Shown one piece after another: positions 12,761 through 33,938 of a stretch of DNA of 64,000 bases. The notes beneath the pieces are model-generated. The model made no database searches. It had not been told where the DNA came from and saw only the letters and a program-made list of their open reading frames with translations. This DNA comes from Syntrophaceae bacterium (GTDB taxonomy: Bacteria; Desulfobacterota; Desulfomonilia; UBA1062). A program made the position numbers and the translations under genes. The stretch's first letter is position 1. Each line of letters starts with the position of its first letter. The stretch is taken from the NCBI GenBank assembly GCA_039680665.1, contig JBDKSM010000138.1:18135-82134 (forward strand). Reading direction: 5' to 3'.

Positions 12761-12761
12761 T

Positions 12762-13193: not shown

Positions 13194-13195
13194 TT

Positions 13196-13567: not shown

Positions 13568-13570
13568 GCC

Positions 13571-14665: not shown

Positions 14666-14668
14666 ACA

Positions 14669-15019: not shown

Positions 15020-15443
15020 ATTCGCACTAGCAGCCGAGATCGTCGGCATCGCCGCTGACAAGGCCGCGCAAGGAGGCCCTGCCGGTGTGCCGCATATCGA
15101 GCTTATCATCGACGAGATGAGCGGCTGCTCTGCCCAAAGGCTGGGCCAGTATTTCGAGTTCCTCTCCGAGGAAGCCGGTCTTGCCGGCGCCAGGCTTACG
15201 GTAACCGCTACCAAGGCGCGCATGGAATGTTTGAGCTGCGGCACTGCCTTCGAGCGTCGGCGCTTTGCGCTCACCTGCCCTGTCTGTATGGGAACGGCGC
15301 GGCCAAGCCCGGCCGCCCAAACCCTGATCATCGATGATTGCGAAATTCTAACACACACAGCCAACCCTCTTTTCCCCTTTGTTTCACGGCTAGAGCAAAA
15401 GAAGGTCGCCCATCCAACCCCCACCCCACAAGGGTTAAAATAG
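15012..15443 (+). CDS. hypA: hydrogenase nickel-insertion protein HypA (GTG start, C-terminally extended)
   Basis: MHEFALAAEIV N-terminus. CxxC...CxxC zinc finger (CLSCG...CPVCMG). Overlaps echF by 8 nt. Confidence 0.75.
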   Translation: MHEFALAAEIVGIAADKAAQGGPAGVPHIELIIDEMSGCSAQRLGQYFEFLSEEAGLAGARLTVTATKARMECLSCGTAFERRRFALTCPVCMGTARPSPAAQTLIIDDCEILTHTANPLFPFVSRLEQKKVAHPTPTPQGLK

Positions 15444-15459
15444 GGCGACCTTCTTTTGC
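15395..15459 (+). repeat. 17-bp perfect inverted repeat / long stem-loop spanning the hypA stop
   Basis: GCAAAAGAAGGTCGCCC (15395-15411) and GGGCGACCTTCTTTTGC (15443-15459) with a 31-nt loop, followed by T-rich sequence. Confidence 0.6.
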
Positions 15460-15543
15460 GACCGCCATGATCTGGAAGGGGAACGCAAAGACCAGTAATA
15501 CGGCGATAGGGTTGGAAAGAACCTGATACTAAGAGGAGGAAAC

Positions 15544-17496
15544 ATGGGTAAAGGCTATATGGGAAAGATCCTCACCGTTGATCTTGATAACGCGACCTGG
15601 ACGGAAGAACAGGTAAGCGATGAGATCTATGAGCAGTATCTTGCCGGGCAAGGGCTGGGCGCCTACATTCTGTATAACCGCATCCCGGCCGGGGCCGATC
15701 CGCTGGGACCCGACAACCTGCTGGGCTTCATGGCCGGACTCCTGACCGGCACCGGCAGCCTCTTTTCCGGACGCTGGACCGTGGTGGGCAAATCACCCTT
15801 GACCGGCGGCTGGGGCGACGCCAATTGCGGCGGCCAGTTCGCGCCGGCCATCAAACGCTGCGGTTATGACGGTATCTTCTTCAAGGGCATCAGTGCCAAG
15901 CCGGTCTATCTGCTGATCGAACACGGCAAGATCGAGCTCAAGGACGCTACCGGGCTGTGGGGCAAAGACGCCGTGGAGACCGAGGAAATCCTCATGGAAG
16001 AACACGGCACGGATGTCCGCGTGGCCACCATTGGGCAGTCGGGAGAAAACCTCTCGCTTATCTCCGGCATCTGCAACGACCGCGGCCGCATCGCCGCCCG
16101 CTCGGGTTTGGGCGCGGTCATGGGTTCCAAGAAGCTCAAGGCCGTAGTCTTGAAAGGGTGCCTGCGCATCGGGACGGATAACGATTACGAGATCAAGCGC
16201 ATCAGCCAGAAATGCAACCGCTGGGTGCAGTTCCATCTTCCCAAATGGCCTGGGTTCTTGAACGCCTACCTGGGCGCGGGCATAGGGCTTCTCCCCTCCC
16301 AGATGGCCATCGACGGCTTTCTCTACAAGGTTCTGAACCGGATCTGGGGCACCAGCAGCATGAACCAGATGTCGATCGGCATGGGCGACTCGCCTATCAA
16401 GAACTGGAAGGGCAGCAACGTGGACTTTGGACTGAAGAAATCGAAGACCGTCAATGCCGATGTATTCACTAAATGCGAGACCGTGAAGTATCATTGCTAT
16501 TCCTGCCCCCTGGGCTGCGGCGGGATCTGTTCGATCAGCGGCAAATATACCGAGACCCACAAGCCCGAATACGAAACCGTGCTGGCTTTAGGCGGACTTG
16601 TCATGAATGAAGACGCCGACAGCATCTTCTACCTCAATGAGGTTCTCAACCGCGCCGGTATGGATACCATCTCGGCTGGCGGCACCGTGGCCTATGCCAT
16701 TGAATGCTTTGAAAAGGGCATCCTTACCCGCGAAGATACCGGCGGCCTTGAGCTCACCTGGGGTAACACCGAGGCTATCGTGGCCCTAATCGAAAAGATG
16801 GTAAAACGCGAGGGCATCGGCGAAATTCTGGCCGACGGCTCCAAGGCGGCCGCCAAAAAGATCGGTAAAGGGTCCATCGACTACGCCATCCAGGCCGGAG
16901 GCCAGGAACCGGCCATGCACGACGGCCGCGGAGATCCGGGCTTCGGTCTGCATTACTCGGTCGAGCCCACCCCGGGACGGCATACGATTGGGTCCCAGCT
17001 GTATTATGAAATGTTCCAGCTCTGGAAGGCGGTCAAGGGGTTGCCCAAGATCAAACCTCTGTATCACAAGGACGAGAAATACGTCGCGGATGAGGGCAAG
17101 ACTCTGCAGGCCGCGGCCTGCAGTAAGTACATGAACATCGTCAATGCCTGCGGCATGTGTCTGTTCGGGGTCTTCCTGGGCATCAAACGCATCCCGACCT
17201 TTGACTGGATCAATGCCGCCACGGGCTGGGACATGAGCCCTAACGACTACATGGATATCGGTGAGCGTATCCAGACCATCAAGCAGGCCTTCAATGTCAA
17301 GCACGGGATCGAGCCCAGGGAGTACAAGCTCTCCGATCGGGCCTTAGGTCTTCCGCCGCTTACCGAAGGCGCCAACAAGGGGCGCACCGTCCCGATCGAC
17401 AAGCTCAGGCACGATTACTGGCAGCACTTCGATTGGGACCCGCAGACCGGCAAACCGACCGAGAAGGCCCTCAAGCGTCTGGGCATTCAATCCTAA
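15544..17496 (+). CDS. aor: tungsten-type aldehyde:ferredoxin oxidoreductase
   Basis: Typical AOR N-terminus (MGKGYMGKILTVDL). 650 aa. AGGAGG RBS. Confidence 0.85.
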   Translation: MGKGYMGKILTVDLDNATWTEEQVSDEIYEQYLAGQGLGAYILYNRIPAGADPLGPDNLLGFMAGLLTGTGSLFSGRWTVVGKSPLTGGWGDANCGGQFAPAIKRCGYDGIFFKGISAKPVYLLIEHGKIELKDATGLWGKDAVETEEILMEEHGTDVRVATIGQSGENLSLISGICNDRGRIAARSGLGAVMGSKKLKAVVLKGCLRIGTDNDYEIKRISQKCNRWVQFHLPKWPGFLNAYLGAGIGLLPSQMAIDGFLYKVLNRIWGTSSMNQMSIGMGDSPIKNWKGSNVDFGLKKSKTVNADVFTKCETVKYHCYSCPLGCGGICSISGKYTETHKPEYETVLALGGLVMNEDADSIFYLNEVLNRAGMDTISAGGTVAYAIECFEKGILTREDTGGLELTWGNTEAIVALIEKMVKREGIGEILADGSKAAAKKIGKGSIDYAIQAGGQEPAMHDGRGDPGFGLHYSVEPTPGRHTIGSQLYYEMFQLWKAVKGLPKIKPLYHKDEKYVADEGKTLQAAACSKYMNIVNACGMCLFGVFLGIKRIPTFDWINAATGWDMSPNDYMDIGERIQTIKQAFNVKHGIEPREYKLSDRALGLPPLTEGANKGRTVPIDKLRHDYWQHFDWDPQTGKPTEKALKRLGIQS

Positions 17497-17506
17497 GGAG
17501 GCGCAC

Positions 17507-17959
17507 ATGTCGTATTCCATAACCGAAATCTGCACCGGCTGCGGGGCCTGCGTCCGGGTCTGCCCGGCTCAGGCCATCAGCGGTGAAAAGAAAAAACCCC
17601 ACACCATCAAGGCGGAGTTGTGCATCGACTGCGGTGCCTGCGGACGCGTCTGCCCCAAGGGCGGTATCCGGAATAGCATCGGGCATACCTGCGCGGCCGT
17701 CAAACGCACCCTTTGGCCAAAGCCCCAGATCGACAACAAGACCTGCATGTCCTGCAGTATCTGCATCGACGCCTGCCCGGCCGGTTGTCTGGCGCTCTCC
17801 GGCGCCTCCGGCAAGGACCCCCACGGCCACCCCTATCTGGCCGATGAAAAGAAGTGCATCGCCTGCGGTTACTGCGCCGTCGAATGCCCGGTCATGGCCA
17901 TCATCATGGCCGTCCCCCAACCGGAGCCGGCGCAAGCGGCAGCCCCGGAGAGCGTATAG
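17507..17959 (+). CDS. poly-ferredoxin (four [4Fe-4S] motifs), putative AOR electron acceptor
   Basis: Four CxxCxxCxxxCP motifs in 150 aa. Confidence 0.8.
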   Translation: MSYSITEICTGCGACVRVCPAQAISGEKKKPHTIKAELCIDCGACGRVCPKGGIRNSIGHTCAAVKRTLWPKPQIDNKTCMSCSICIDACPAGCLALSGASGKDPHGHPYLADEKKCIACGYCAVECPVMAIIMAVPQPEPAQAAAPESV

Positions 17960-18235
17960 GGTCTTATCCCATCCTCTTTCCCCAACAGAGGGAAAGGGGA
18001 TGGAGAAGGACTCTCGTCTCAGGACTTCATATTCAACGCCATTATTTAACCTACATCACTGAGTAGACCTGGCCGTTCATCAAGACTCTTCCTTCAAATA
18101 CCCCACGCTTTGGACCAGGATGATTCTTTGATGGTCTGCCAGGCGTATGGCCTTGGGCAGGACTCCTTGGCGAAGGAAGCTCTGATAACCGTGGTCAGAT
18201 GCGCCTGGGCGCAATAGAAATACATTCGCTTGAAT

Positions 18236-18278
18236 AAAAAGTCGCCCCCAGTGGATGGGCAGGATCACTGGGGGCGAC
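18236..18278 (-). terminator. rho-independent terminator of the Fe-ADH gene
   Basis: Perfect 13-bp stem (GTCGCCCCCAGTG / CACTGGGGGCGAC) with a 12-nt loop, followed on the minus strand by UUUUUAUU. Confidence 0.7.
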
Positions 18279-18367
18279 GGCTGATGGGGTGATACGATGA
18301 TTGGTTTAGTAAATACTTTTCAAGATCGCCATGCCGTCGTCATATTTATATGCAATCATGGTGTTGG

Positions 18368-19603
18368 CTAGGCTTTGAGCGATCTGATAACCGCCATGCA
18401 ATCCTTTTTGCACATGATTTTCGGCACGGGATAGGTGGGGTTGCATTCAAGCAATGCGCGCTCCGCGATGAGCGGGATGTCGGCGTCCTTGATGCAATCG
18501 AACTTGTTCGGGATGTTCATTCTCTGGTTGAGGGCCTTGACGGCTTCGATAAAAGCCTTGGCCTTCGCTGCATTGCTCATGCCGGGTTTGGAAACGCCGA
18601 TCAGTTCCGCAAGCTGGGCCAGGGGCTTGTGCGCCGCTTCGCCGTACCATTCCAGGACATAGGGCATGATAACCGACATGGCCAGTCCATGCGGAACGTT
18701 ATACATGCCGCCGAGGTTGTGGCCGATGCCGTGCACGTAACCGACCCCGCCCCGTGTGAACGTATACCCCGCGTAATATGCGGCCCGCAGCATCTGTCCG
18801 CGCGCTTCAAGGTCTTTGCCGTCTTTATAGGCTTTCTCAATGTTGTTGAAGATCATTTCAACGGCCAGAAGGGCTTTTACCGTGGTATCCGTACTATTAT
18901 AGAACTTGCCGATATAGGACTCGACCGCATGCGTCAAGGCATCCATGCCCGTTGTCGAGGTAATGTGAGGCGGAAGGCCGACGGTCAGCACCGGGTCAAG
19001 CACCGCGTAGCGCGGACGGATGACCGGGTCGGTGATTGGAGATTTTTCATGTGTCTGAGGGTTCGATACGACCGCCGCGATGGTGGTCTCGGAACCCGTA
19101 CCGGCGGTGGTCGGAACCGCGAAGATCGTCGGAGGGAAAAGCGATCCCATTTTAATGGCGGGAAGCATGACCTTGAACAGCCCCCGCATCTGGTTGACCG
19201 ATCGCGCCGGGCGGGCAACCCGTGCGCCCACGCCTTTGGCGCAATCCATCGGGGATCCGCCGCCGAAGGCTATGATTGCTTGGCAGTTGTTGGCATGATA
19301 GATTTTCAGGGCGGCTTCTATGTTGTCGAAGGTGGGATTGGGTTGCACCTGATCATAGAGCGCATACTGAACACCTGCAGCTCCGAGGGCCTCAAAAAGT
19401 GAATCGAGCAGGTGCAGGCTCATAAGGACAGGGTCGGTGACTACCAGAACTCTGGTGAAGCCTTTATTTTTGATGACCGCGGGTAGTTTCTTTATGCTAT
19501 CCGCCCCATCGATGATTTCGGGTTCGATCCAGGGCAGAACCTTCATTCCCAGACCCATGACGAATTGATAGATGCGATAATACACTTTTTTTAAAATCCA
19601 CAT
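18368..19603 (-). CDS. iron-containing (group III) alcohol dehydrogenase
   Basis: Fe-ADH family signature regions (GGGSPMDCAKG; His-rich metal site GxxHxxxH). GGAGGT RBS. Confidence 0.85.
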   Translation of the reverse strand: MWILKKVYYRIYQFVMGLGMKVLPWIEPEIIDGADSIKKLPAVIKNKGFTRVLVVTDPVLMSLHLLDSLFEALGAAGVQYALYDQVQPNPTFDNIEAALKIYHANNCQAIIAFGGGSPMDCAKGVGARVARPARSVNQMRGLFKVMLPAIKMGSLFPPTIFAVPTTAGTGSETTIAAVVSNPQTHEKSPITDPVIRPRYAVLDPVLTVGLPPHITSTTGMDALTHAVESYIGKFYNSTDTTVKALLAVEMIFNNIEKAYKDGKDLEARGQMLRAAYYAGYTFTRGGVGYVHGIGHNLGGMYNVPHGLAMSVIMPYVLEWYGEAAHKPLAQLAELIGVSKPGMSNAAKAKAFIEAVKALNQRMNIPNKFDCIKDADIPLIAERALLECNPTYPVPKIMCKKDCMAVIRSLKA

Positions 19604-21244: not shown

Positions 21245-21883
21245 TTATCGGACATGGGCTTGACCTGCCAAGCGCGGGCAAGGTTCCTCCACGCTGTCTT
21301 TATGGACGCCGATGCGGTAGACGAAGATGGGGTCGTTGAAGATCGTCTCCGTAGCCTTGATGATCTCCTCCTCGCGCCAGCCGGGGATGGGGAAGTTGGC
21401 GCTGAAGACCATTGCGCCTTCGGGCAGTTCGCTCTCCAGTTTCTCCCCCAGGCGGGGCATGATATCGACGAAGAGATAGCAGTAGATGCAGTCCACGGCC
21501 GAGAAGTCCTCGTGCCAGAAATCGCGGAAGAACACCCGCGACTTGAGCCCGAGGAGCTTGATCCTGAGGCGCGTCATCAGGTACGCGATTGGGTTGATCT
21601 CATACCCGGTGGCGCTCACACCGTAGCGCTTTTCGATGGAAGCCAGAAAGCGGCCGTCTCCGGTGCCGAGCTCACGGATGCTCTTGAAGCGCGCAAAATC
21701 CACCGCGTCCGTGAGCCGCCGGATCATCACCCCTGGCGTCGGGACGAACATGGCCCCTCCGGTACGGTGATGCACGGCCACGATCACCATGGAAAAGATG
21801 AACAAGACCGCAAAGGCGATCAGGCTAATGCCGAGGATAGCGAGGAGGGCGGTCTGCATGGTCTTAAAGGGGCCAACACTCAA
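21245..21883 (-). CDS. membrane-anchored class I SAM-dependent methyltransferase
   Basis: N-terminal TM helix. Motif I (ELGTGDGRF). Confidence 0.65.
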   Translation of the reverse strand: MSVGPFKTMQTALLAILGISLIAFAVLFIFSMVIVAVHHRTGGAMFVPTPGVMIRRLTDAVDFARFKSIRELGTGDGRFLASIEKRYGVSATGYEINPIAYLMTRLRIKLLGLKSRVFFRDFWHEDFSAVDCIYCYLFVDIMPRLGEKLESELPEGAMVFSANFPIPGWREEEIIKATETIFNDPIFVYRIGVHKDSVEEPCPRLAGQAHVR

Positions 21884-22644
21884 GGATAGTCGATCTTGTA
21901 ATTGTCGATGATGACCTGCCGGGTGCGCTGCATGAGCTCCGGCAAGTCATCGTGGGTGTAGCCGGTGGTCTCGATGGGGTCGCCCACCACGACCTCGATG
22001 GGTCCGGGCGTAAAACACAGGCTTTTTTTGGGCAGCACCTTGCGGCTGCCGTTGACCGTGACCGGCAAGATGGGTAGGCCTTTCTCGACCGCCATGGTGA
22101 AACCGCCTTTCTTGAATTCCTGTATCCGACCGTCCGGGGAGCGCGTGCCTTCGGCGAAGAACATCACGCTCACGCCGGGCGGCAGGCGGTCCACCCCTTC
22201 GTGGATGGTCTTGATGGCCTGGGCGTGGTTGGAGCGGTCGATGAAGATATTGCGGGCGACATACAGCGCATATCCGAACAGAGGTATTGTGCGGAGCTCC
22301 TGCTTGATGATCCATCGGAACTGGATTCTCAAGGTGGTGACCAGGGCCAGTATGTCATACTCGGACTGGTGATTGGAGACGATGATATAGGATTGGCCGG
22401 GTTTGATCTTTTCCCTGTTTTTAATGCGTGGGTGCACGTTCGTCATGAAGAGGAGAAAGAAGGCCCAGAGCTTGGAGATGGAAAACGCCAGGTTGCCGGT
22501 GGTGCTCATGAGAGCCGCCATGGTCATGGGGAGAAACAACATCACCGTAGCGATGCCGGCCCAGAAACTGATCCAGATGACCTTGCACGTCCTCGTCAGA
22601 CCTGTCTGCATAGCCCGGTGCTCCTGTTTCATATGCTTAAGCAA
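21880..22644 (-). CDS. 1-acyl-sn-glycerol-3-phosphate (lysophospholipid) acyltransferase, PlsC family
   Basis: HX4D motif (NHQSEYD). FAEGTRS block. N-terminal TM. 4-nt overlap with the downstream methyltransferase. Confidence 0.8.
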   Translation of the reverse strand: MLKHMKQEHRAMQTGLTRTCKVIWISFWAGIATVMLFLPMTMAALMSTTGNLAFSISKLWAFFLLFMTNVHPRIKNREKIKPGQSYIIVSNHQSEYDILALVTTLRIQFRWIIKQELRTIPLFGYALYVARNIFIDRSNHAQAIKTIHEGVDRLPPGVSVMFFAEGTRSPDGRIQEFKKGGFTMAVEKGLPILPVTVNGSRKVLPKKSLCFTPGPIEVVVGDPIETTGYTHDDLPELMQRTRQVIIDNYKIDYP

Positions 22645-22690
22645 ATTATAACCATTGGCACTGTCTCGGTCAATGGTTTTGCCGCATCCC

Positions 22691-23368
22691 TTACAGCAGC
22701 GTTTCCATCACGAAATAGAAGAAGCACAGGTTGCCCAGATAGATGATCATGACCGTGAAGGCGGCCCCCAGGCGATACCATATGGCGCGGCCCAACGAAG
22801 CTTCATAGGCCAGGAAGGCACTGAGTCCGAACAGTATCTCGGGCACGATCAGGTAGAGCGCCACATGGGCGACGGTGGTAACGTCCCGGGCATACCAGAT
22901 CGGTACCGCCCACAAGACTGTTTCCGATCCTACGAACAGCAAGAAAGATGACAGACATACCGCCAGAATGACATATTTCCGGGACGTGCGCAGGGCCAAG
23001 CGCTGTCCCAGGAATACGGTGATGAACAGGGGGATCACCCATAATCCGCCCATAAAGGCCGGGACCGCGCCGACACGCAGAGAACCCGTATCCGGAAATA
23101 CCAGCACGTTCAGCTGCGCGGCCAGGAACCAGTCCGGGAAGATCTGCAGGATGCTTAAAGGAAAAAGGAAGAGCCACAGGCGGGTCCATTCCGGATAGCC
23201 TTGCCGCATCCCGGTGATCGGGAGCGCAAGGTTGTACGCAATGACCAGGGCGCTCAAGCGGGGTCCGACCGGCAGCGCGCCCGGGATCATCAGGACCACC
23301 ACGGCGACCAGGGTAAAGAGGCCGTGCAGGATCAGGCAATCGCGTTCCATACGGTCAAGGGGCTGCAT
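22691..23368 (-). CDS. polytopic membrane protein of unknown function (lipid-operon member)
   Basis: About 7 hydrophobic helices. No catalytic motif recognised. Confidence 0.5.
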   Translation of the reverse strand: MQPLDRMERDCLILHGLFTLVAVVVLMIPGALPVGPRLSALVIAYNLALPITGMRQGYPEWTRLWLFLFPLSILQIFPDWFLAAQLNVLVFPDTGSLRVGAVPAFMGGLWVIPLFITVFLGQRLALRTSRKYVILAVCLSSFLLFVGSETVLWAVPIWYARDVTTVAHVALYLIVPEILFGLSAFLAYEASLGRAIWYRLGAAFTVMIIYLGNLCFFYFVMETLL

Positions 23369-23456
23369 GCGTTCTTAGACCTCCTTCATAAAGAGTACTT
23401 GAAAAAGAGCGACGGATCATTATCATGATCATGACTTTGACAGCAAGGAGGGTAAC

Positions 23457-25829
23457 ATGTCGGTGCCTGCAATGAAAGCGGTAATTGAACCAGGAGGGGA
23501 GAGCCCCCGTTTCGAGCGCATCAAGCAAACTCTGCTCTCAAGCAAGGTGCATCTCTGCCCGGAAAGGGCCGAACTGATCACTACGTTCTTCAAAAAACAC
23601 GATAACCGCCGCGAACCCATGGTGGTCAGGCGGTCCAGGGCCTTGGGCTACCTGCTGGAACACAAAGCCATCCGGATTTATCCGGAGGAACTGATCGTGG
23701 GCAATATGGGGACGCGGCGCATCTCGGCCATCATGCAGCCGGAACTGGCCAGCGTCTTTATGAGCGAAGAGCTGCTCTGGATCGACAAGCGCGCCACCAC
23801 GCCCTTTGAAATGCCCTGGCGTGAACGCCTGCGCCTGCTCCTCTCCGTCCATCCTTACTGGCTGGTACGCAACATGGCGCTCAAGGCCTTCTTCCCGCGT
23901 TTTCATACCATGGCGCGCTATGTGGCCGAACAGCTGAACGCCACCTACTATCTCATCAACGAGGCCGGCGGTATCGGACATTTCCTGCCCAATTACGAGA
24001 AGGTGCTCAAACTGGGCCTGCGGGGATACCTGGCGGCCCTGGAGGGCAAGGACGGCGATTTCCATCGCGCGGCGTGCATCGCCTGTGAGGCGTTAGCCGC
24101 CTATGCCGGCCGGGTGGCCGCAACCGCCCAGGCGCTCTCGGAAAAGGAGCGCGACCCGCGGCGCGCCGCGGAACTTCAGGAGATCGCGCGCATCTGCCGC
24201 AAGGTGCCCATGGACCCGCCTGAGACGTTGCACGAGGCCTTGCAGGCCCTCTGGCTCACCCATATGGCCGTCAATATGGAGGGGCTCAACTCGGCCATCT
24301 CATTCGGCCGTATCGATCAATACCTCTACCCTTACTACCAGGCCGATCTCGACGCCGGCCGGATCACCCCGGACGAGGCCCGCGAGCTGCTGCTGCTCTT
24401 TTCCGCCAAGGCCGTGGAGCATGTCTTCCTGCTCTCCGAGCGTACCAGCCAGTATCACGGCGGGTACCTGGTGGTGCAGGCCGCGATTATCGGCGGCATG
24501 GATAAAGAGGGTCAAGACGCCACCAATGCCTTGACCTATCTCTTCCTGGACGTGATGGAGCAGCTCGGCCTGCGTGATCCAAACTATCAGGCGCGCATTC
24601 ATAGAGACAGCCCGCCTGATTACCTTCAGCGGGTGGTCGATGTGGCCCGGCACGGCGGCGGCATGCCGGCCTTGTTCGGCGATGAGGCCGCCATCGCCGC
24701 GCTTGTCAGCCATGGCTATCCTCTTCAAGAGGCGCGCAACTATGCCGTGGTAGGATGCGTGGAACTGTCACTGCCGGGCAAGAGTTTTTTCTCCACCGAT
24801 GCCGGGCTCTTCAACCTGCCCTTGTGTCTTGAACTGGCCTTGAATAGAGGTAAGCGCTTCGGGAAACGCCGGCGGCTGGGCGCCAAAACCCCGGACCCGG
24901 CCAATTTCAAATGCATCGAGCAGGTCATCGAGGCCTTCCGCTGCCAGGTGGATTTCATGGTGGCCCGTATGATCGCGGATCTCAAGGTCATGGAGCAAGG
25001 CAACCGCGACTATCACCCCACGCCGTTCTCCTCCCTGCTCGTAGATGGGTGCCTGGAGACGGGCAAGGATGTCACGGCTGGCGGCGCCGTCTACAACTCC
25101 AGCGGCGTGCAGGGGGTGGGGATCGCGGATGTGGCCGATTCGCTCGCCGCCCTGCAGGAGGTCGTGTTCAAGCACAAGAAATATTCGCTCGCCACTCTCA
25201 TAGAAGCCCTGAAGAACAACTTCGAGGGACAAGAGATGCTGCGCGCTGAGCTCCTGAAGTCCCCTAAGTTCGGCAACGATCAACCGCTGCCCGACGCCTA
25301 TGCCGATCTGGCGGCGCACATCTACCATGACGCCCTGGCCAAACACCGCAACATCCGCGGCGGAGGCTATGTGCCGGGCTTTTATTCCGTCACCTGCCAC
25401 GTGGCCTTCGGCAAGCGCTCCCCGGCCCTGCCCAGCGGCCGAGAAGCCGGCGAACCTTTCGCCTCCAGCCTAGGGCCCTGCAACGGTAGTGACCGCCGGG
25501 GACCTACCGCGCTTTTGAATTCGGTGGCGCATGTGGATTCCAAACTGGCCATGAACGGCTATGCCCTGAACCTGCGCTTCGATCCTGAGACCTTGGCCGG
25601 TGAAAAGGGCGTGACGGTCCTGTCGGCGCTGGTGGAAGGCTTCTTCTCCCAGGGCGGCATGGAGATGCAGCTCAATGTCTTGGACCCGGAGAAGCTGGAA
25701 GACGCCCGGACCCACCCCGGTAAATACCCGGGACTGGTAGTGCGCGTGGCCGGGTACTGCGCCTATTTCGACGACCTGCCCGACGCCACCAAAGAGGAGA
25801 TCATCGCGCGCACGCGGCTGCGGGCATAA
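23457..25829 (+). CDS. glycyl-radical enzyme, PFL2/dehydratase-eliminase type
   Basis: C-terminal glycine-radical motif (VVRVAGYCAYF). Thiyl loop (VVGCVELS, a Cys-x-Glu arrangement). 790 aa. AAGGAGGG RBS. Confidence 0.85.
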   Translation: MSVPAMKAVIEPGGESPRFERIKQTLLSSKVHLCPERAELITTFFKKHDNRREPMVVRRSRALGYLLEHKAIRIYPEELIVGNMGTRRISAIMQPELASVFMSEELLWIDKRATTPFEMPWRERLRLLLSVHPYWLVRNMALKAFFPRFHTMARYVAEQLNATYYLINEAGGIGHFLPNYEKVLKLGLRGYLAALEGKDGDFHRAACIACEALAAYAGRVAATAQALSEKERDPRRAAELQEIARICRKVPMDPPETLHEALQALWLTHMAVNMEGLNSAISFGRIDQYLYPYYQADLDAGRITPDEARELLLLFSAKAVEHVFLLSERTSQYHGGYLVVQAAIIGGMDKEGQDATNALTYLFLDVMEQLGLRDPNYQARIHRDSPPDYLQRVVDVARHGGGMPALFGDEAAIAALVSHGYPLQEARNYAVVGCVELSLPGKSFFSTDAGLFNLPLCLELALNRGKRFGKRRRLGAKTPDPANFKCIEQVIEAFRCQVDFMVARMIADLKVMEQGNRDYHPTPFSSLLVDGCLETGKDVTAGGAVYNSSGVQGVGIADVADSLAALQEVVFKHKKYSLATLIEALKNNFEGQEMLRAELLKSPKFGNDQPLPDAYADLAAHIYHDALAKHRNIRGGGYVPGFYSVTCHVAFGKRSPALPSGREAGEPFASSLGPCNGSDRRGPTALLNSVAHVDSKLAMNGYALNLRFDPETLAGEKGVTVLSALVEGFFSQGGMEMQLNVLDPEKLEDARTHPGKYPGLVVRVAGYCAYFDDLPDATKEEIIARTRLRA

Positions 25830-25923
25830 CGGGAGATGCTCAAGCAGAGGTTGCCTACGGGTATTATGACGTTCACGTCCTCAATCCATTCGGCCACGCA
25901 TATACGCACATGAAAGGAGTGGA

Positions 25924-26205
25924 ATGATGAAAAAGAAATACAAGGCCGGCACCTTTTGTGTCGATATCCAGTGCCCCCGGCATAAGGACCTGGAATCTCT
26001 GGAAGGCGATGTGTATCTGGAAAAGAAAAGGACCCTTTGCAAGGATTGCAATGCCTGGAAATTTTTTCTCTGGCTTGACGAGCATGATTATCGGATCGTG
26101 AGCACCCTTAACGAGATGCCCGCTAAAGAGCTTGCCGCCAGGCTCAAAGGGATTGACCCCGTGACCGTGGAGCATCTCACCATAGACGAGATTCTCTGTA
26201 TCTAG
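25924..26205 (+). CDS. small Cys4 (zinc-ribbon-like) hypothetical protein
   Basis: 93 aa. CxxxxC...CxxC. AAAGGAG RBS. Followed by a terminator. Confidence 0.5.
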   Translation: MMKKKYKAGTFCVDIQCPRHKDLESLEGDVYLEKKRTLCKDCNAWKFFLWLDEHDYRIVSTLNEMPAKELAARLKGIDPVTVEHLTIDEILCI

Positions 26206-26209
26206 GGAA

Positions 26210-26245
26210 AAGCCAGGGGAACGCGTATTCCCCTGGCTTTTATTC
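26210..26245. terminator. bidirectional rho-independent terminator
   Basis: AAGCCAGGGGAA-cgcgta-TTCCCCTGGCTT followed by TTTATT. Sits between convergent genes. Confidence 0.7.
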
Positions 26246-26253
26246 GGTATCCA

Positions 26254-28953
26254 TTATTTCGTCTTGGCTTTGAATATGGATGTCAGGGGCTTGGCGGCCT
26301 TTTTGAAGGCAATTCTCAGCTTACGTTTCAACACGCTCTTGATAATCACCGGTTTCAGGTTTTTGAATTCAATATTTTGAGCGTCATATTTTTTTACCAG
26401 TTTGATTGCCTCAAACTTACATTTGGTTGTGCACATTCCGCACCCTACGCACAGGTCTTCATCGACAACCGTAGCGCCGCAGCTCAAGCAACGTTCCGTT
26501 TCTTTCTTTACCTGCTCTTCTGTAAAGGTGCCGCGCAGATCCTTGAAGGTTTTATCGGATCTATCTCCGTCGACATGGGCTGCTCGTTGTCTTGGAAGAC
26601 GATCATACCCTTCGAGATCCACGTTCGCTTTATCAAACGCACGGTAGGCTCTCTTCGTACGGCCCATAACAAGGCTCTGTCCGGGCTGCACGAAGCGGTG
26701 GATCGAGATCGCGCCTTCTTTGCCCAGAGCGATAGCATCAATAGCGAACTTTGGTCCGGTTACGGCATCGCCGCCGGCGAATACATCGGGTTCTCCGGTT
26801 TGGTATGTCTCAGGATCCGCCTTAATGGTCTGGTTGGGATTCAATGCCTGGCTACTTTCTGCAATCAACGTACCCCAATCAATTGCCTGGCCGACCGAGA
26901 TCAAGACCTGATCCGCCTCGACGGTCTTCGTGTCATTTTCATCATATTGGGGGTTAAACCTTTTCTTCTCATCGAAGACGGAAATGCATTTTTTGAATTC
27001 CACACCCGTGACGCGTCCGTTTTCGGCAAGGATACGTTTGGGTCCCCAGGAATTGTTGATGGTGATGCCTTCTGATGTTGCTTCTTCAATTTCTTCGTCC
27101 AGGGCCGGCATTTCTTTCCGGTTTTCCAGACAGTACATAGCAACTTTTGAAGCGCCGACTCGTGTAGCGGCTCTGGCTACATCGATGGCGACGTTACCGC
27201 CGCCGATGACAAGCACGATCCCTTCGAGTTTTGCGCCTTCTCCCAAGTTGACATTCCGTAAGAAATCAACACCGGTGATAACACCTTGGGCATCTTCACC
27301 TTCGATACCGAGCTTTCTGCCCGCCTGGGCTCCGATGGCAAGATAGAAGGCTTTGAACCCCTGAGACCTCAAGTCCTTTAGACTTACATCTTTGCCGACT
27401 TCAACGCCGGTTTTAAACTCAACGCCTAACTCTTTCAAAATGTCGATTTCCGCATGAATGACATCTCGTTCGAGCCTAAAAGAGGGGATGCCGAGTGTCA
27501 GCATGCCGCCGAGCGCTTTTTGTTTTTCAAATACGGTTACCTTATACCCGTCAATAGCCAGGTAGTAAGCACAAGAGAGTCCGGCAGGACCGGCACCGAC
27601 AATGGCAATCTTTTTCCCGTACTGATGTCTTAGCCGTGGCACATAGCGGTGTTCCGCCCTCAGATCCTGTTCCGCGATGAATTTCTTGATATCATCGATG
27701 GCGATTGGATCATCGATGTCGCCTCTGGTACACGCGGATTCACAATATCTCGGGCAGACGCGTCCGCATACGGCCGGGAAAGGATTTTCATGCTTGATGA
27801 GCTCCAGGGCGTCCCGGTATTTTCCCTGGGAGGCCAGCTTGATATATCCCTGAATGCCGATATGGGCAGGACATTCCGCTTTACAGGGACTCGTGCCGGT
27901 AGCGACCACAACCTGTCTGTTCATACGATAATCGGGATTCCATTTGTCCGGGCCCCACTCGGTATTACTGGGAAGCTCTCTTCTCTTTTGTTTCGGCAGA
28001 GGACCTTTGGTGCAGATTTTTTGACCTAATCTCAAAGCATTAACAGGACAGTTTTCAACGCACTCTCCGCAGGCAACGCATTTATCTTTGTCCACCTGTG
28101 CCACGTAGTTGGAACGTACCATATCGGTGTTGTAGAACATCTCGGCCGTTCTTAAAGAAAGGCACCCGCATCCGCAGCAGTTACAGATCGCGTGCGTTTT
28201 CCCGGGACCGTCCGTGTTCGGTATCTGATGTATCAGGCCGTTTTCTTCCGCTCTTTTAATGATTTCAAAGGCCTCTGCACGGGTGATCTCGCGTCCTCTG
28301 CCGGTGCGGATATAGTATTCAGCGGCATGCCCCATCTGAATACACATATCTTCCTTCAGGTGGCCGCAGCCTTCTCCCATGATTTCTCTGGTTGTGCGGC
28401 AGGAACAGTTCGAAACCGAAAATAATGTATTTTCATTCAGGTACTTAGAAACTTCCTCGTATGAGGCCCTTCTCTTTTCCGCCATAATCGATTCTTCGAT
28501 CGGGATAACGCGCATCAAGCCCATGCCGACAGGGAAAATACCGGCCGTCAGCGGGCCTCGTACTCTTCCGTAGGCCTCCATGGCCTCGGCAATTTGCGGA
28601 TACTTTTTAACGTTTTCTATTTTGTTGACCATGCATTCCATGATGCCCGGAATCCAGGTATCATACCAATATTTATCAACACCGTCCTTTTTATTGACAA
28701 AGCAGACGCCGAGGTCCGCCAATGCTTCCAGCTGTTTTGTCGATTCCTCGATGGATTTACCGCACTTGGCGGCAACTTCTTCCGCACTCTGTGGGATACG
28801 GAACTCAAGGACGAGTGCCACTTCCGCCATTTCTTCCGTAACAACGGGCTCCAGAATTCTATATTCCGGATCTTCGGGCTTGATGGCGTCTTTTGCGCCG
28901 CGTTTCTTTTTACTGACCTTATTAGCAAAATCCAATACCTTTTCTTTTGCCAT
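26254..28953 (-). CDS. multi-domain Fe-S flavoprotein: N-terminal Cys-rich domain + GltD/NfnB-like FAD/NAD(P) oxidoreductase core + C-terminal 2x[4Fe-4S] ferredoxin (YgfK-like architecture)
   Basis: 899 aa. GltD-type helical Fe-S segment (VCGRVCPRYCESACTRG). GAGPAGLSCAYYL and a second GGGNVAIDVA dinucleotide motif. Ferredoxin CxxCxxCxxxC at both ends. CNCCGCGC cluster. Confidence 0.65.
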   Translation of the reverse strand: MAKEKVLDFANKVSKKKRGAKDAIKPEDPEYRILEPVVTEEMAEVALVLEFRIPQSAEEVAAKCGKSIEESTKQLEALADLGVCFVNKKDGVDKYWYDTWIPGIMECMVNKIENVKKYPQIAEAMEAYGRVRGPLTAGIFPVGMGLMRVIPIEESIMAEKRRASYEEVSKYLNENTLFSVSNCSCRTTREIMGEGCGHLKEDMCIQMGHAAEYYIRTGRGREITRAEAFEIIKRAEENGLIHQIPNTDGPGKTHAICNCCGCGCLSLRTAEMFYNTDMVRSNYVAQVDKDKCVACGECVENCPVNALRLGQKICTKGPLPKQKRRELPSNTEWGPDKWNPDYRMNRQVVVATGTSPCKAECPAHIGIQGYIKLASQGKYRDALELIKHENPFPAVCGRVCPRYCESACTRGDIDDPIAIDDIKKFIAEQDLRAEHRYVPRLRHQYGKKIAIVGAGPAGLSCAYYLAIDGYKVTVFEKQKALGGMLTLGIPSFRLERDVIHAEIDILKELGVEFKTGVEVGKDVSLKDLRSQGFKAFYLAIGAQAGRKLGIEGEDAQGVITGVDFLRNVNLGEGAKLEGIVLVIGGGNVAIDVARAATRVGASKVAMYCLENRKEMPALDEEIEEATSEGITINNSWGPKRILAENGRVTGVEFKKCISVFDEKKRFNPQYDENDTKTVEADQVLISVGQAIDWGTLIAESSQALNPNQTIKADPETYQTGEPDVFAGGDAVTGPKFAIDAIALGKEGAISIHRFVQPGQSLVMGRTKRAYRAFDKANVDLEGYDRLPRQRAAHVDGDRSDKTFKDLRGTFTEEQVKKETERCLSCGATVVDEDLCVGCGMCTTKCKFEAIKLVKKYDAQNIEFKNLKPVIIKSVLKRKLRIAFKKAAKPLTSIFKAKTK

Positions 28954-29155
28954 GGGGTGTCGCCTCCTAGATGCTGCTTTCGCGTTTGTGGTTATTTATC
29001 GTGACAATTCTTATGTCCTTTACACAGCCACCACGCCCGGATCTTAGAGCCATTTTGGCCAATCGTGCGGGCGTATCTTGGAATCTTCCCGCCTTTTATC
29101 AAGAATCATCCCTGCGCCGGTGAAGGCGGCCATACGCACCGGCGCAGGGGTATGT

Positions 29156-30211
29156 TTAGTCCGCCAGGGCCTTGATGAGTTTGTATTGCTTGAGATCCGT
29201 GAAGAGTTCGCCCGTGTAAGGATTGCGCTTGGTCTTGGCGATCTTGTAGATCATGTAGCCGAATACGGCCACGTTCGAGAGCAGTGCCAGCAGGCTTACC
29301 ACAAACAATGCCGTCGTATCAGGCGTGGCCGAGACCACGGGATATAAACCCTCTTTGGTTAATGCCATGCCTTTTGCCGCTGCCGCAATCTGTGCGCTGG
29401 CAACCGATTGCACCGCAAAGGACCCCTTGTCGATAAATAAGGGGAAGGTCTGGGCGAACATACACCAAAGGGCCAGCGTCTGGGCGCGGTGTTGCAGCCA
29501 GGCGCCCTTGCCGACGGTGAAGGCGCAGATCGTGGGCGCGATCAATAGCGCCAGGCCACAGTACCAGGAGTGACCAGGCAGACAGTTGTAGGTGTAGGCA
29601 AAGTTCCAGAGATCATAGGCAATGATCCAGAACCAGAGCATATCCGGCCAGAGCATGTCCATGCTTGTGTCTTTGGCGGTCTTTTTACGGACACAGATCC
29701 CGAACCAGCCCGTGATCGTGATGATGTTCAGGATGCCGGCGATGCCATTCATATAGTTCCATGAGCCGCCGATGTAGTATTGCATCTGATTGTGCAGGAA
29801 CTCAATGGTGGGAACTTGGTAGATTGCACCGACCTCAAAGTCGCGCATAACCGCTTCCATGATGTTGATGGCCAGGATCAGCGGCGGGAAGCACAACGCC
29901 CATTTCATTTGGCTTAAGCGCCACTCGGTACCGTCTTTGCGTTTGCCGCGCAGGTGCCTGATGCACCAGAAACCGATGCAGCCGGCGGTCGATGAATACA
30001 CCTTGGCCACATGGAACCAGTCCATATAGGCCGTATCCTTCAAAGCCGTCAGCCATAACACCGTCAGGATGATGGGCAAAACAACAAACATGGCAAACCC
30101 TGCCCATTTGTATCTGCGCCCGACTTCATTCGATACGAACAATGCGACCAGAACCGCGAACCAAACAAGCCACACTAAAATGGAACTGACGTCCGTGCTG
30201 AAAGTAAACAT
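29156..30211 (-). CDS. Trp-rich polytopic membrane protein of unknown function
   Basis: 351 aa with about 9 TM helices. No recognisable family. Confidence 0.5.
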   Translation of the reverse strand: MFTFSTDVSSILVWLVWFAVLVALFVSNEVGRRYKWAGFAMFVVLPIILTVLWLTALKDTAYMDWFHVAKVYSSTAGCIGFWCIRHLRGKRKDGTEWRLSQMKWALCFPPLILAINIMEAVMRDFEVGAIYQVPTIEFLHNQMQYYIGGSWNYMNGIAGILNIITITGWFGICVRKKTAKDTSMDMLWPDMLWFWIIAYDLWNFAYTYNCLPGHSWYCGLALLIAPTICAFTVGKGAWLQHRAQTLALWCMFAQTFPLFIDKGSFAVQSVASAQIAAAAKGMALTKEGLYPVVSATPDTTALFVVSLLALLSNVAVFGYMIYKIAKTKRNPYTGELFTDLKQYKLIKALAD

Positions 30212-30356
30212 CTCTACACCTCCACGTTGCCGTTAATTTTTTATGAGTTGCCGGATGTCCGTAATTTTAACGGTGCCGACTGGACCATCGGTATTTCTCT
30301 TGAGTCCAAGCATTATCGCTCCCTGGTACTTTTATGAGCCTCGCTTTAAATGTCAC

Positions 30357-30366
30357 TGGTATACCA
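30357..30366. promoter_or_regulatory. candidate GntR/FadR-type operator
   Basis: Perfect 10-bp palindrome TGGTATACCA fitting the GntR consensus (GT-N-AC core), in the divergent intergenic region. A partial second copy CTGGTATATGG lies at 30468-30478. Confidence 0.55.
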
Positions 30367-30521
30367 CATACCAAAAGCCTTATCGGATAATTTAGAAAGA
30401 TGCAATAGCATAATTATGAGAATTATATTTATCTTGAAAAGTGGCCGAATGGATGTTAACAAATCATCTGGTATATGGCTGAGCCAATACGAGAAATGAT
30501 GGATGAGAAAGGACGGCTAGG

Positions 30522-31229
30522 ATGAAATTTGCAAAACTCAGCGCCCCCAGCCTGAAAGAGCTGTTCATCAGAGAGATCGAAGGCATGATCCTGTCCGGCA
30601 AGCTGCCCATCGGTTCCAAGCTTCCGACCGAGCGTGAGCTGTCCACGTCCATGGGCGTGAGCCGCGCCGTGGTGAACTCAGGGCTCATTGAAATGACCCG
30701 CAAAGGTTTTGTCGAGATGAAGCCCAGGGTGGGCGCCATCGTGGCGGATTACCGCCGTCATGGTACGACCGAAACGTTAACCTCCATCATGCATTACAAC
30801 GGCGGCGTGCTGCCCAAGGCCGACATCAAATCGCTCCTGGAATTCAGGATTGTCTTCGAGACCCTGGCGTTGGAGCTGGGCGTGCCCCGCGCCACCAAGG
30901 ATGACCTGAAAAGACTCAAATCAATCGCGGAACAGTACAGCGCCGCGGACAGCCCCGCGGCCGCGGCTCAGGCCATCTACGACTTTCACCATGAAATCAG
31001 CGTGATATCCGGCAACACCATCCTGCCGATTATCTTCTATTCCTTCAGCACATTGCAGCAGATGCTCTGGACCCGCTACTTTGAGCTCTATGGTCATGAA
31101 AAACTGCAGCAAACCACCTGGGAGCTCTACCACCTCATCGAAAAGCGCGACACCAAAGGCGCCATCGCCAATCTCACCAGCTCCATCAATGAGACCATCA
31201 GCGGCAAAGCCCCGATTTACTACGAATAG
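30522..31229 (+). CDS. GntR family transcriptional regulator (FadR/FCD C-terminal domain)
   Basis: GntR winged HTH (GSKLPTERELSTSMGVSRAVVNSGL). FCD-like helical C-terminus. Confidence 0.8.
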   Translation: MKFAKLSAPSLKELFIREIEGMILSGKLPIGSKLPTERELSTSMGVSRAVVNSGLIEMTRKGFVEMKPRVGAIVADYRRHGTTETLTSIMHYNGGVLPKADIKSLLEFRIVFETLALELGVPRATKDDLKRLKSIAEQYSAADSPAAAAQAIYDFHHEISVISGNTILPIIFYSFSTLQQMLWTRYFELYGHEKLQQTTWELYHLIEKRDTKGAIANLTSSINETISGKAPIYYE

Positions 31230-31301
31230 ATGCCTTCCTTGCCCATCCCATGAGTACAGGCTGCCTAACTTTTTCAGCGGCCTGTTCCCATGGGGTCATT
31301 G

Positions 31302-31930
31302 TCACGCAGTACCCGGTGTCCCCTCAGGCAGCGAAGGCGCTCCGGCCACGTTCGCGTTGCGCTTCAAGTCCTCATAGAAGATGGTCAGGCAGGTCTGGAA
31401 ATACGGCACGATCCAGAGAAACCCGATCCCCAGAGTCAGTATGCCCAAGAAGGTCCACCCGATGAACCGGCATCCCAGGCAGAAGAGCCTCCATTTATGC
31501 CCGCGCATGAGTTCCTTGCTTTGCGTAATAGCCGCCAACCCCTCCATGCCGGGATTGTCCGCCAGGATGAAGAAGGTCATGGCATAGCTCAAGGCCGCGA
31601 TGATGCCCGGTATGATGAGCAGCAGAGTCCAGAGCAGGGTGAAGAGCGTGCGCAGCAGATAGGCCAGGAAGGCATTGACGAAACGCCGGAAGCCCTCGAA
31701 AAGCTGGGAGAGCCGCATATCCCGCGTGCGCACAAAGCTTAAGTACACCAGACAGTAACCCAGCATCAGCGGCCCTGAGATCACGATGCCGGCCAGCCAG
31801 CCGATCACCGGGATGCAGTTCAGCAGGAAGATGATCGAGAAATACACGGCCGAAGCCAGGATCGGCAGCTTCCAGTTCCCTTCAACATCGCACGGGCCTG
31901 GCTGGTTGTCTCGGCATTCAACAAGGCCAT
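31302..31930 (-). CDS. DUF975-family membrane protein, apparent -1 frameshift near N-terminus
   Basis: ATG 31930 with GGAGGTG RBS encodes MALLNAETTSQARAMLKG. The DUF975-like continuation (NWKLPILASAVYF...) is in another frame. The frames join at a GGGAA/AAC homopolymer around 31876-31880. Confidence 0.5.
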
Positions 31931-32069: not shown

Positions 32070-33938
32070 TTATTGTGTTTTGTAGTTTTCCAAGAGCTTC
32101 ACCACTTTTGAATTTGATAATGCACTACTTTTTGCCATATCCAGCGGAGTTTCACCACTATTGGTCCTTAAATTCGGATTGGCCCCTTGCCTTAAAAGAA
32201 AATCAACTTTAGCTAGATTTCCGTGAAGGGCTGCATATGCCAAGGCTGTGTGACCAGATTCGTCTTGGGCATTGATTTCAGCTCCTCTTTCAAGCAACAT
32301 TTTTAAGCATTCGAGATCATGGCTCCGAGCTGTTGCTTGTATCAATATTGTCGAACCCTGGGGTGTTCTGGCATTGGGATCCGCCCCATTATCTAAGAAG
32401 AGCCGAATACCATTACAGTTCAAGTACCCCTGGGCGACACCTAAAGCTAATGCTGTATAGCCTTCTTTGTCCTTTGCGTTGATTGCAGAACCTCTTTCCA
32501 AGAGCAGACCTATAACTTCGTTTAATCCTTTTAAGGACGCCCACATTAATGCTGTCCGACCATTTGCTGACTTTGCATTGATGACTGCTCCATTATCTAG
32601 CAATAACCTGACCTTTCCAACTGTGCGAGTTTGTTCTGAGGTGTAAGAGTAAGGTGGCAGTACCATCAACACCGTCAGTCCATCTTTGTCCTTCACATTT
32701 GGATCGGCCCCTCTTTTAAGCAACAAACTGACGATTTCTTGTTTGCCCTGTTCGACAGCAGCTATAAGTGCCGTTCTGCCATCTCTGTTGGTTGTATGAA
32801 TGTTTGCACCCCTGTCCAATAGCAAGTTTACATTTTCGGCATTCTCTGATCTTGAAGCAATCATCAATGGAGTTATTCCATTCTTTCCTGATGCATTGAC
32901 ATCGGCTCCCTTGTCCAGCAACAGCTTAATGCTGTCGGCTCGTCCACTGGCTGCAAATATCAATGCAGTCGCACCATCATTTTGTTTTGCGTTGACATTG
33001 GCCCCCTTTTCCAGCAGTAGCCTGACAACTTCGGGGCCGTCAGGCCTGCCAGCCGTAACTGCATAATTCAAGGCATTCCATTCATTCTGGTCCTTTGTAT
33101 TGACATCTGCTCCTTTGTCCAGCAACAGCCTAATCAGGTCGGTTGATCCCCCAGTAATCGCAAACATCAACGCAGTCGAACCGTCTTCCCGCATTGCATT
33201 GACATATGCACCTTTTTCAAGCAGCAAACGTACGATGCTGACATTACCCCATAAGGTGGCAGAAATTAGCGCAGTCTCCCCATCCTTTGGTGTTACATTG
33301 ACTTTGGCATTATGGTTTAGAAGTAATCGTATTAAATCTTCCTTATTCTGTCTCACGGCAATCATCAATGCCGTTCGGCCTTTTGCATCTTGTGCATTAA
33401 CATCAGCACCTCGGCTGATCATCTTGGCAATTTGTTTTGGCTCCGCATCTTTTTCGATTGCGTAGACAAGAGGGGGCTTTCTTTCTTTCGCTATGTTTTC
33501 AACAAACTTCCCAGTATCAGTATTGAAAAACATAGTCGTCTTTTCGCTTGGACAGCACAAGGCATCGCTACTCTTGTACTCCAGCAGTTCGACTACCAGT
33601 TTTTGTCCGGCAAATTTCTTCACCGAACCATATCGAAGGTCGATACTGTCGCTGAATATCCATTTCCCGGACCGTTTAATAAATAAGGCAGCAGAGCAAT
33701 GCACATTCGCTGGGTTACTTGCTCCCTCATTGGCCCCACCCGGCAAATTCTCATCTTCGCAATAATATTCCACCCGCTGTGTTGCGTCAGCGTTGCAAAA
33801 AGCCTTCCGTTCGATAATCAGTTTGTTGTTTTTGAAGTATTCCGCAATAGACTTTGGTACTGATTGGCCGCCAGAATGGGCTAATGTCGATTGGGCAAAA
33901 ATAGCAAACAGTAACACGCTTGGAATGAATATTTTCAC
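32070..33938 (-). CDS. secreted ankyrin-repeat protein (about 13 ANK repeats) with a unique N-terminal Cys-containing domain
   Basis: Signal peptide (MKIFIPSVLLFAIFAQSTLA). Repeated (GxTALmxAaxxGhxxxVxxLLxxGAdvN) units. Gene is visibly more AT-rich than its flanks. Confidence 0.85.
   Translation of the reverse strand: MKIFIPSVLLFAIFAQSTLAHSGGQSVPKSIAEYFKNNKLIIERKAFCNADATQRVEYYCEDENLPGGANEGASNPANVHCSAALFIKRSGKWIFSDSIDLRYGSVKKFAGQKLVVELLEYKSSDALCCPSEKTTMFFNTDTGKFVENIAKERKPPLVYAIEKDAEPKQIAKMISRGADVNAQDAKGRTALMIAVRQNKEDLIRLLLNHNAKVNVTPKDGETALISATLWGNVSIVRLLLEKGAYVNAMREDGSTALMFAITGGSTDLIRLLLDKGADVNTKDQNEWNALNYAVTAGRPDGPEVVRLLLEKGANVNAKQNDGATALIFAASGRADSIKLLLDKGADVNASGKNGITPLMIASRSENAENVNLLLDRGANIHTTNRDGRTALIAAVEQGKQEIVSLLLKRGADPNVKDKDGLTVLMVLPPYSYTSEQTRTVGKVRLLLDNGAVINAKSANGRTALMWASLKGLNEVIGLLLERGSAINAKDKEGYTALALGVAQGYLNCNGIRLFLDNGADPNARTPQGSTILIQATARSHDLECLKMLLERGAEINAQDESGHTALAYAALHGNLAKVDFLLRQGANPNLRTNSGETPLDMAKSSALSNSKVVKLLENYKTQ

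Follow-up and report, generated by a model that had tools for sequence, protein, structure and literature searches.

A solitary glycyl-radical enzyme gene from a Syntrophaceae bacterium, probably encoding a diol-dehydratase-like eliminase that is activated in trans

How is a glycyl-radical enzyme (GRE) switched on, and on what does it act, when its gene stands apart from any activating enzyme? The functions of GREs are usually discovered through their gene neighbourhood, that is, through an adjacent activase and pathway genes. The GRE gene considered here lies at positions 23457..25829 (+ strand) of a 64,000-nucleotide stretch of contig JBDKSM010000138.1 (GenBank assembly GCA_039680665.1) from a Syntrophaceae bacterium, and this whole stretch is called the window below. 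A sequence-only reading of the window had described a GRE of 790 amino acids (aa) with an RVAGY glycine loop and a GCVE thiyl loop, of eliminase type and not a pyruvate formate-lyase (PFL), with no activase in the 64 kb, with rlmN as the only radical-SAM (S-adenosylmethionine) gene, and with neither a substrate nor an activation partner assignable from sequence. Our analysis bears out each of these points. We consider it reasonably probable that the enzyme belongs to the functional class of 1,2-eliminases, nearest to the B12-independent diol dehydratases, and that it is a C-O eliminase activated in trans. Two points had been missed by the earlier reading: the absence of an activase throughout the clade to which this GRE belongs, and the existence of a sister clade with one activase for two GREs.

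The open reading frame is intact over 790 aa, and its Pfam domains, PFL-like (PF02901; 2.1e-177, residues 17-652) and Gly_radical (PF01228; 3e-27, residues 669-771), confirm a GRE of the PFL2/glycerol-dehydratase family. The protein is 100% identical to MEN6474752.1, a "pyruvate formate lyase family protein" of a Syntrophaceae metagenome-assembled genome (MAG), and the stretch that bears the gene is also present on one 229-kb JGI contig and two Logan contigs. A Shine-Dalgarno sequence graded as strong (AGGAGG, 23446..23451, +) is read from the sequence 5 nt ahead of the ATG. The 88-bp divergent intergenic region 5' of the gene holds a sigma-70-like promoter candidate (TTGAAA-16-TATCAT, 23399..23426, +), a pattern match only, with 10/12 matches in a consensus scan. 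Downstream, between convergent units, a bidirectional intrinsic-terminator-like hairpin (AAGCCAGGGGA...TCCCCTGGCTT, then TTTATT) was scored on both strands at about 26210..26245. Opposite-strand genes bound the unit on both sides, divergent upstream and convergent downstream past the hairpin, and no riboswitch or other RNA element was found round the gene (Rfam, E <= 0.1, 22000-31500). Judged by these predicted signals, the GRE gene is a self-contained unit with a promoter-like site and a terminator, and without attached pathway or activase genes. An activase immediately beyond the window and co-transcribed with the GRE, which the sequence-only reading had considered as the finding that would make this an ordinary locus, is precluded by the promoter-like site, the terminator and the opposite-strand flanking genes.

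The search for an activase used six GRE activases of related loci together with E. coli PflA and NrdG, and a hidden Markov model (HMM) built from all eight; phmmer and the HMM were run on all six-frame segments that reach 40 aa or more. No GRE activase was found in the 64-kb window, and the matches are ferredoxin domains only, located in a polyferredoxin beside an aldehyde:ferredoxin oxidoreductase, in a small ferredoxin and in an 899-aa flavoprotein. A scan for CX3CX2C agrees with this result: three six-frame segments with a length of 100 aa or more contain the motif, namely RlmN (51115-52137; Pfam RlmN_N and Radical_SAM), the frame of a GMC-type FAD oxidoreductase (6724-8151, +) and a ferredoxin (14666-15016), and RlmN is the sole radical-SAM gene in the window. 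The activase-free span about the GRE measures 23.4 kb upstream and 38.2 kb downstream.

One striking feature of this enzyme is that its close relatives are encoded in the same solitary manner. Among related loci drawn from GTDB genomes, JGI metagenomes and exact-protein look-ups, 32 loci (446 kb in total, with at least 5 kb on both flanks in 14 of them) carry GRE homologues 69-87% identical to the window protein; their hosts include Syntrophaceae and Smithella MAGs, one Chloroflexi MAG, one Actinobacteria MAG and others. No activase of any type was found in these 32 loci, up to 10 kb from the GRE. It is the clade as a whole that lacks a local activase, and we refer to it as the solo clade. It numbers at least 120 sequence clusters (90% identity clustering) at 67-87% identity, belongs to several phyla and is carried by anaerobes of peat, wetlands, lakes and digesters.

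The immediate neighbours of the solo GRE differ in nearly every lineage, and include TetR, isocitrate dehydrogenase, an IS110 transposase, PAS/HD and chemotaxis signalling proteins, a DpnII-type restriction enzyme, ABC transporters and RlmN. The IS110-family transposase lies directly upstream of the GRE in its locus (L006 8638-9579). This neighbour, the unrelated surroundings in each lineage and the 68-70% identity across phyla suggest that the solo GRE gene moves horizontally as a single gene; no plasmid carriage of the clade was found, the best plasmid match being 38%. Two neighbours recur weakly. A PlsC-type acyltransferase (PF01553), encoded in the window at 21880..22644 (-), recurs in four loci, three of them independent, at 86% identity in L040 (915-1703), 60% in L021-23 (L021 9096-9869) and 41% in L010 (20349-21227); this may reflect a lipid- or glycerol-derived substrate, or residual synteny. 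An ADP-forming acyl-CoA synthetase is found near the GRE in four loci (L029, L030, L024 and L010). Because both recurrences are too weak, we assign no pathway.

Homologues about 64% identical to the window GRE always occur in a cassette with the order GntR-GRE1-activase-PNPOx-like-GRE2, seen in L012, L014, L035, L037, L043 and L052-L058 (for example L054 6706-14345, with the activase at 10001-11026 and GRE2 at 11976-14345). The cassette consists of a GntR/FadR regulator, GRE1 (837-838 aa, with GCLE as its Cys loop, RITGY as its Gly loop and 32% identity to the window GRE), an activase of 335-349 aa (TIGR02494, 325 bits), a PNPOx-like protein of about 282 aa, and GRE2 (780-793 aa), the homologue in question. 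Each cassette therefore holds one activase for two GREs with different Gly loops, and the arrangement is apparently uncharacterised. A neighbour-joining tree groups the nine cassette GRE2s in a clade of their own and places all 14 solo loci inside a 130-leaf sister clade. A pocket signature tracks this split (V340/V645 in solo, A340/S645 in cassette proteins), and the Gly loop VVRVAGYCAYF is the same in both clades. According to a 2026 review (PMC13450708), the sequence of the Gly loop contributes to activase specificity. In the simplest interpretation, a PflC-type activase from another place in the genome switches on the window GRE in trans, which fits the history of the lineage, since the latter descends from, or is sister to, cassette GREs that share one activase.

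Two further observations concern the cassettes. YggS, glutamate dehydrogenase and an NrpR-like gene are often found near them. In the NCBI MAG JAHDOV01, the cassette GRE2 is split into open reading frames of 533 and 254 aa (L055 11930-14292); a Logan contig that does not differ in other respects carries the same GRE2 unbroken, at 787 aa (L056 7167-9530), and the split is probably an assembly frameshift.

What kind of GRE is it? With 653 bits against TIGR01774 (the PFL2/glycerol-dehydratase subfamily), just under the 678.2 cut-off, the protein is by its sequence score an outlying member of this broad subfamily. It reaches no NCBIfam equivalog: PflD, HpfG, HpsG, HypD (492 bits against a cut-off of 1100), CutC, the decarboxylases and PFL are all far under threshold, and membership in the CutC, HypD, HpsG/HpfG and PflD families is rejected on this ground. 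A PFL or formate lyase is ruled out by the single Cys in the VGCVE loop, where no Cys-Cys pair occurs, and by 143 bits against the 994 cut-off of TIGR01255. Identity to any solved GRE is 38% at most. The top PDB sequence matches are Archaeoglobus fulgidus PFL2 (2f3o; 502 bits, 38%) and glycerol dehydratase (1r8w; 494 bits, 35%), then CutC (430-480 bits), the propanediol dehydratase 5i2a and PflD; among the eliminases, IslA and IseG match least well (319-367 bits), and PFL scores 122 bits. For an AlphaFold2 (AF2) model (pLDDT 76.5, pTM 0.84), Foldseek places glycerol dehydratase first (TM 0.91), followed by 2f3o and the propanediol dehydratases 5i2g and 9rco. The label formate acetyltransferase/PFL that the protein presently carries is unsuitable, and alkylsuccinate synthase would be equally so.

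Residues were mapped by HMMER alignments onto glycerol and propanediol dehydratase, and as a check the reconstructed glycerol dehydratase numbering returned H164, H281, S282, Y339, C433, E435, D447, Y640, S642 and G763. The catalytic counterparts in the window GRE are H175 for H164, C434 for C433, E436 for E435, D448 for D447, Y643 for Y640 and G766 for G763; none of H175, C434, E436, D448 and G766 varies among 117 full-length homologues. In the DNA (+ strand), the codon of His175, aligned with the general acid His164 of 1r8w, lies at 23979..23981, the Cys loop G433-C434-V435-E436 with the thiyl-radical Cys at 24753..24764, the Asp448 codon at 24798..24800, and the Gly loop R763-V-A-G766-Y767, the glycyl-radical site, at 25743..25757. 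The sequence-only reading was right about the GCVE loop itself and wrong in describing it as Cys followed by Glu: the motif is C-x-E, with Glu two residues after Cys. Such a motif is described in PMC13450708, where the Glu takes a proton from the carbinol OH and the His gives a proton to the leaving OH. With H175, C434, E436 and D448 kept, in roles as given there, the catalytic apparatus for C-O elimination is predicted to be complete, and by its single-Cys C-x-E loop, its low PFL score and its best sequence and fold matches the protein is placed as an eliminase-type GRE, not a PFL. It belongs to an uncharacterised subfamily.

The pocket differs more from the known dehydratases than the catalytic centre does. 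Positions H281/S282 of glycerol dehydratase correspond to S279/A280, Y339 to V340 and S642 to V645; the propanediol dehydratase counterparts of V340 and V645 are F344 and V696. In this mapping the diol-binding residues of glycerol and propanediol dehydratase are not matched, V645 alone agreeing with propanediol dehydratase, and the protein is for this reason not an orthologue of either. Because the pocket appears less polar than in glycerol dehydratase, a small, hydroxylated molecule that is apolar on one side is the probable substrate.

The reaction would then proceed as follows. A radical-SAM activase of the PflA/PflC family, encoded at another locus, would put the radical on Gly766, from where it would generate a thiyl radical on Cys434. 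The thiyl radical would take a hydrogen atom from the carbinol carbon of the substrate; Glu436 would remove the proton of that hydroxyl, and His175, backed by Asp448, would protonate the vicinal leaving group, most likely OH. Water would be lost, and the product radical would regain a hydrogen from Cys434 to yield an aldehyde or a ketone.

Several points weigh against a diol-dehydratase-like eliminase activated in trans. No GRE activase was found in the 64-kb window and the 32 solo-clade loci, so activation in trans is something we infer. The closest retrieved relatives of the cassette activase (the 120 best, 57-100% identical to it) come from other taxa, and the four whose locus was looked up all lie inside cassettes. 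The substrate-contacting residues differ from those of every characterised dehydratase, and the pocket loops 168-175, 325-340 and 642-650 of the AF2 model are poor (pLDDT < 50). In the active-site comparison that the sequence-only reading had proposed, the catalytic residues map onto glycerol dehydratase, and the AF2 model does not resolve the pocket loops. Finally, the GRE isomerases PflD, YbiW and HplG also have C-x-E, and PflD scores nearly as high (466 bits).

This last point leads to the alternative chemistry that survives best, although we hold it to be unlikely: a GRE isomerase of the PflD, YbiW or HplG type, in which the same radical machinery would cleave a ring C-O or C-N bond and the product would be an isomer. 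The C-x-E motif is kept in isomerases (PMC13450708), PflD is near the top of the matches (8id0 466 bits, 8yjo 439 bits) and Foldseek gives a TM of 0.89 to 8id0. Because the motif is shared and PflD scores so close, elimination and isomerisation are not separable by sequence. Diol dehydratases nevertheless stand above PflD in both the sequence and the fold ranking, the PflD equivalog NF007437 gives 502 bits against a cut-off of 1109, and no sugar-phosphate or hydroxyproline pathway genes were found near the GRE in any locus.

A different view of activation, to which we likewise give little weight, is that the solo clade is a single-gene module activated by a promiscuous, non-cognate activase that serves a different GRE system in the host, or by an activator of an unrecognised type. 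Were a promiscuous or new activator at work, it would contradict the prevailing view of one activase per GRE, and the clade would define radical dehydratases with a new class of substrate, in anaerobes of peat, lakes and sediments. As the results stand, the unusual feature of the subfamily is its genomic organisation, not a demonstrated new chemistry, and established GRE biology is not contradicted.

A C-N or C-S lyase of the CutC or IslA/HpsG type, acting on an amine or a sulfonate, would share the C-x-E motif, and CutC scores 430-480 bits. It seems improbable in view of His175, which occupies the general-acid position of the dehydratases, where the motif of CutC differs in the HMMER alignment (its residue there is Asp216). 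The corresponding equivalogs are far under their cut-offs (CutC 481/1050, HpsG 481/1000, HpfG 496/1000), and IslA and IseG, as noted above, rank lowest among the eliminases.

Even less probable is a function like that of the X-succinate (alkylsuccinate) synthases, which has been suggested for A. fulgidus PFL2/PflD. What speaks for it is that 2f3o, the top PDB match, has a debated function, either glycerol dehydratase or (1-methylalkyl)succinate synthase (MASS), and that the host lineage (Smithella/Syntrophaceae) includes known alkane degraders. The X-succinate synthases themselves score only 231-233 bits (BSS 231, MasD 233), under half of the 430-500 bits of the eliminases, and the eliminase set of C-x-E, His and Asp shows no variation. 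The GRE is accompanied neither by genes for small beta, gamma or delta subunits nor by any conserved small-subunit gene, the mini-protein gene that follows it being unrelated and not conserved with it; the carriers moreover include Chloroflexi and Actinobacteria MAGs of lakes and peat. Membership in the BSS/MASS group is rejected on the scores and the missing small subunit.

The mini-protein (25924..26205, +; 93 aa) and the convergent flavoprotein were the two genes that the sequence-only reading had linked to the GRE. The implied link is what fails. The mini-protein is encoded by a real gene and belongs to a Cys/His-rich family of 92-93 aa with 45 homologues at 60-86% identity in MAGs of Actinomycetota, Bacillota, Desulfobacterota and Desulfomonilia, with C12, C17, H20, C39 and C42 invariant and a AKELAARLKGIDP motif conserved near the C-terminus; no Pfam family matches the mini-protein, whose AF2 model (pLDDT 72) has no Foldseek match. 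The 899-aa protein is a GltD-like Fe-S/FAD oxidoreductase. One may imagine that the GRE, the mini-protein and the flavoprotein, together with DUF5692 and GntR, form a local module that gives electrons or replaces the activase. The genes do adjoin, and the GRE and the mini-protein are probably co-transcribed here, because there is no terminator-like site between the GRE stop and the mini-protein start. A nearby GntR/FadR-family regulator (30522..31229, +) is also 37-41% identical to the regulators that head all two-GRE cassettes.

We nevertheless regard such a module as very doubtful. The proposed co-occurrence of the three genes fails on comparison, since neither the mini-protein nor the flavoprotein adjoins the GRE in any other of the roughly 50 homologous loci. 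In the same set, the flavoprotein, DUF5692 and DUF6989 have no homologue at all, and all three are rejected as conserved GRE partners. A mini-protein homologue (L059 10001-10282) follows dnaN-gyrB-gyrA on a contig whose GRE cassette is 170 kb away. G+C content is 49-50% in the genes of the mini-protein and the flavoprotein, against 62% for the GRE, and neither protein contains a radical-SAM motif. The mini-protein is also unlike the small subunits of BSS, HPAD and MASS, which are described as HiPIP-like or rubredoxin-like; given this, its absence from other GRE loci and its homologue by gyrA, we reject it as a GRE small subunit and consider it a passenger. As for the GntR gene, located at a distance of 4.7 kb from the solo GRE and oriented divergently to the DUF5692-flavoprotein unit, its relevance to the GRE is unproven.

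The idea of a decaying or non-catalytic relic, left after loss of an activase that is indeed near the GRE in no locus, is the least credible of all, as the full-length frame is kept in at least 120 clusters (90% identity) of several phyla, with 161 invariant positions that include every catalytic residue, and the gene has a strong Shine-Dalgarno sequence, a promoter-like site and a terminator of its own.

Some other genes of the window deserve mention. An energy-metabolism cluster lies upstream of the GRE at 9996-19603; among its members are Mrp/complex-I-like membrane subunits, a ferredoxin, HypA, a NiFe-hydrogenase large-subunit-like protein (13571-14665), the aldehyde:ferredoxin oxidoreductase (15544-17496) with its polyferredoxin (17507-17959), and an Fe-alcohol dehydrogenase (18368-19603). 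The aldehyde:ferredoxin oxidoreductase, 6-8 kb upstream of the GRE, and the Fe-alcohol dehydrogenase, about 4-5 kb upstream, fit an aldehyde-forming enzyme, though they are not conserved across loci. A 622-aa ankyrin-repeat protein (32070-33938) has an unusually low G+C content of 44.9%, compared with 56.4% for the window, and related ankyrin proteins are also found near the GRE in L007 and L016. Two long opposite-strand frames overlap at 6724-8151 (+) and 6997-8439 (-); the 480-aa minus-strand frame is probably spurious, because the Pfam support (GMC/FAD oxidoreductase) is on the plus frame only.

If the window GRE is a C-O eliminase activated in trans, what would follow? Function discovery through the neighbourhood fails for the solo clade, because its GRE is always encoded alone. 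The apolar variant of the diol-dehydratase pocket suggests a substrate beyond those of the characterised eliminases. Activase specificity is poorly defined according to PMC13450708, and if the activase is shared or non-cognate, the solo clade would offer a natural test case for its determinants. For both reasons these GREs are a good target, for function discovery as well as for the study of activase specificity.

How does the solo clade compare with known systems? We found no description of the clade, its solitary arrangement or the two-GRE cassette in the searchable literature. Glycerol dehydratase (Clostridium butyricum, 1r8w) and propanediol dehydratase (Roseburia inulinivorans 5i2a/5i2g; 9rco) are alike in fold (TM 0.90-0.92), and their RVAGY Gly loop, GCVE Cys loop, general-acid His, Asp and Tyr are kept in the window GRE, whose V645 also matches V696 of propanediol dehydratase. 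They are, however, just 34-35% identical to it, the pocket residues H281/S282 and Y339/F344 are replaced, and unlike them the window GRE has neither an adjacent activase nor an equivalog match. No microcompartment or dha/pdu-type genes occur in the Pfam matches for the genes within 10 kb and a further sample of window frames. A. fulgidus PFL2, the best sequence match, has C-x-E, His and Asp in common with the window GRE, as well as Ala at the position of glycerol dehydratase S282. It differs in being archaeal and in having a pocket of Q/A/Q/N where the window GRE has S/A/Y/V, and its function is described as unresolved in PMC13450708. Cassette GRE2 is closest, about 64% identical over its full length and with the same Gly loop and catalytic residues, but it always shares its cassette with a second GRE and with an activase that lies 1-2 kb upstream, and it has A340/S645 instead of V340/V645; this GRE2 is itself uncharacterised. 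For the mode of activation, the nearest precedent is E. coli, where PflA activates TdcE, which is encoded elsewhere (PMC13450708); TdcE, and GrcA, exemplify a GRE served by the activase of another GRE with a matching Gly loop. TdcE, however, is a formate lyase, paralogous to PflB, from a single organism, whereas the solo clade, with no local activase in several phyla, is of the eliminase type.

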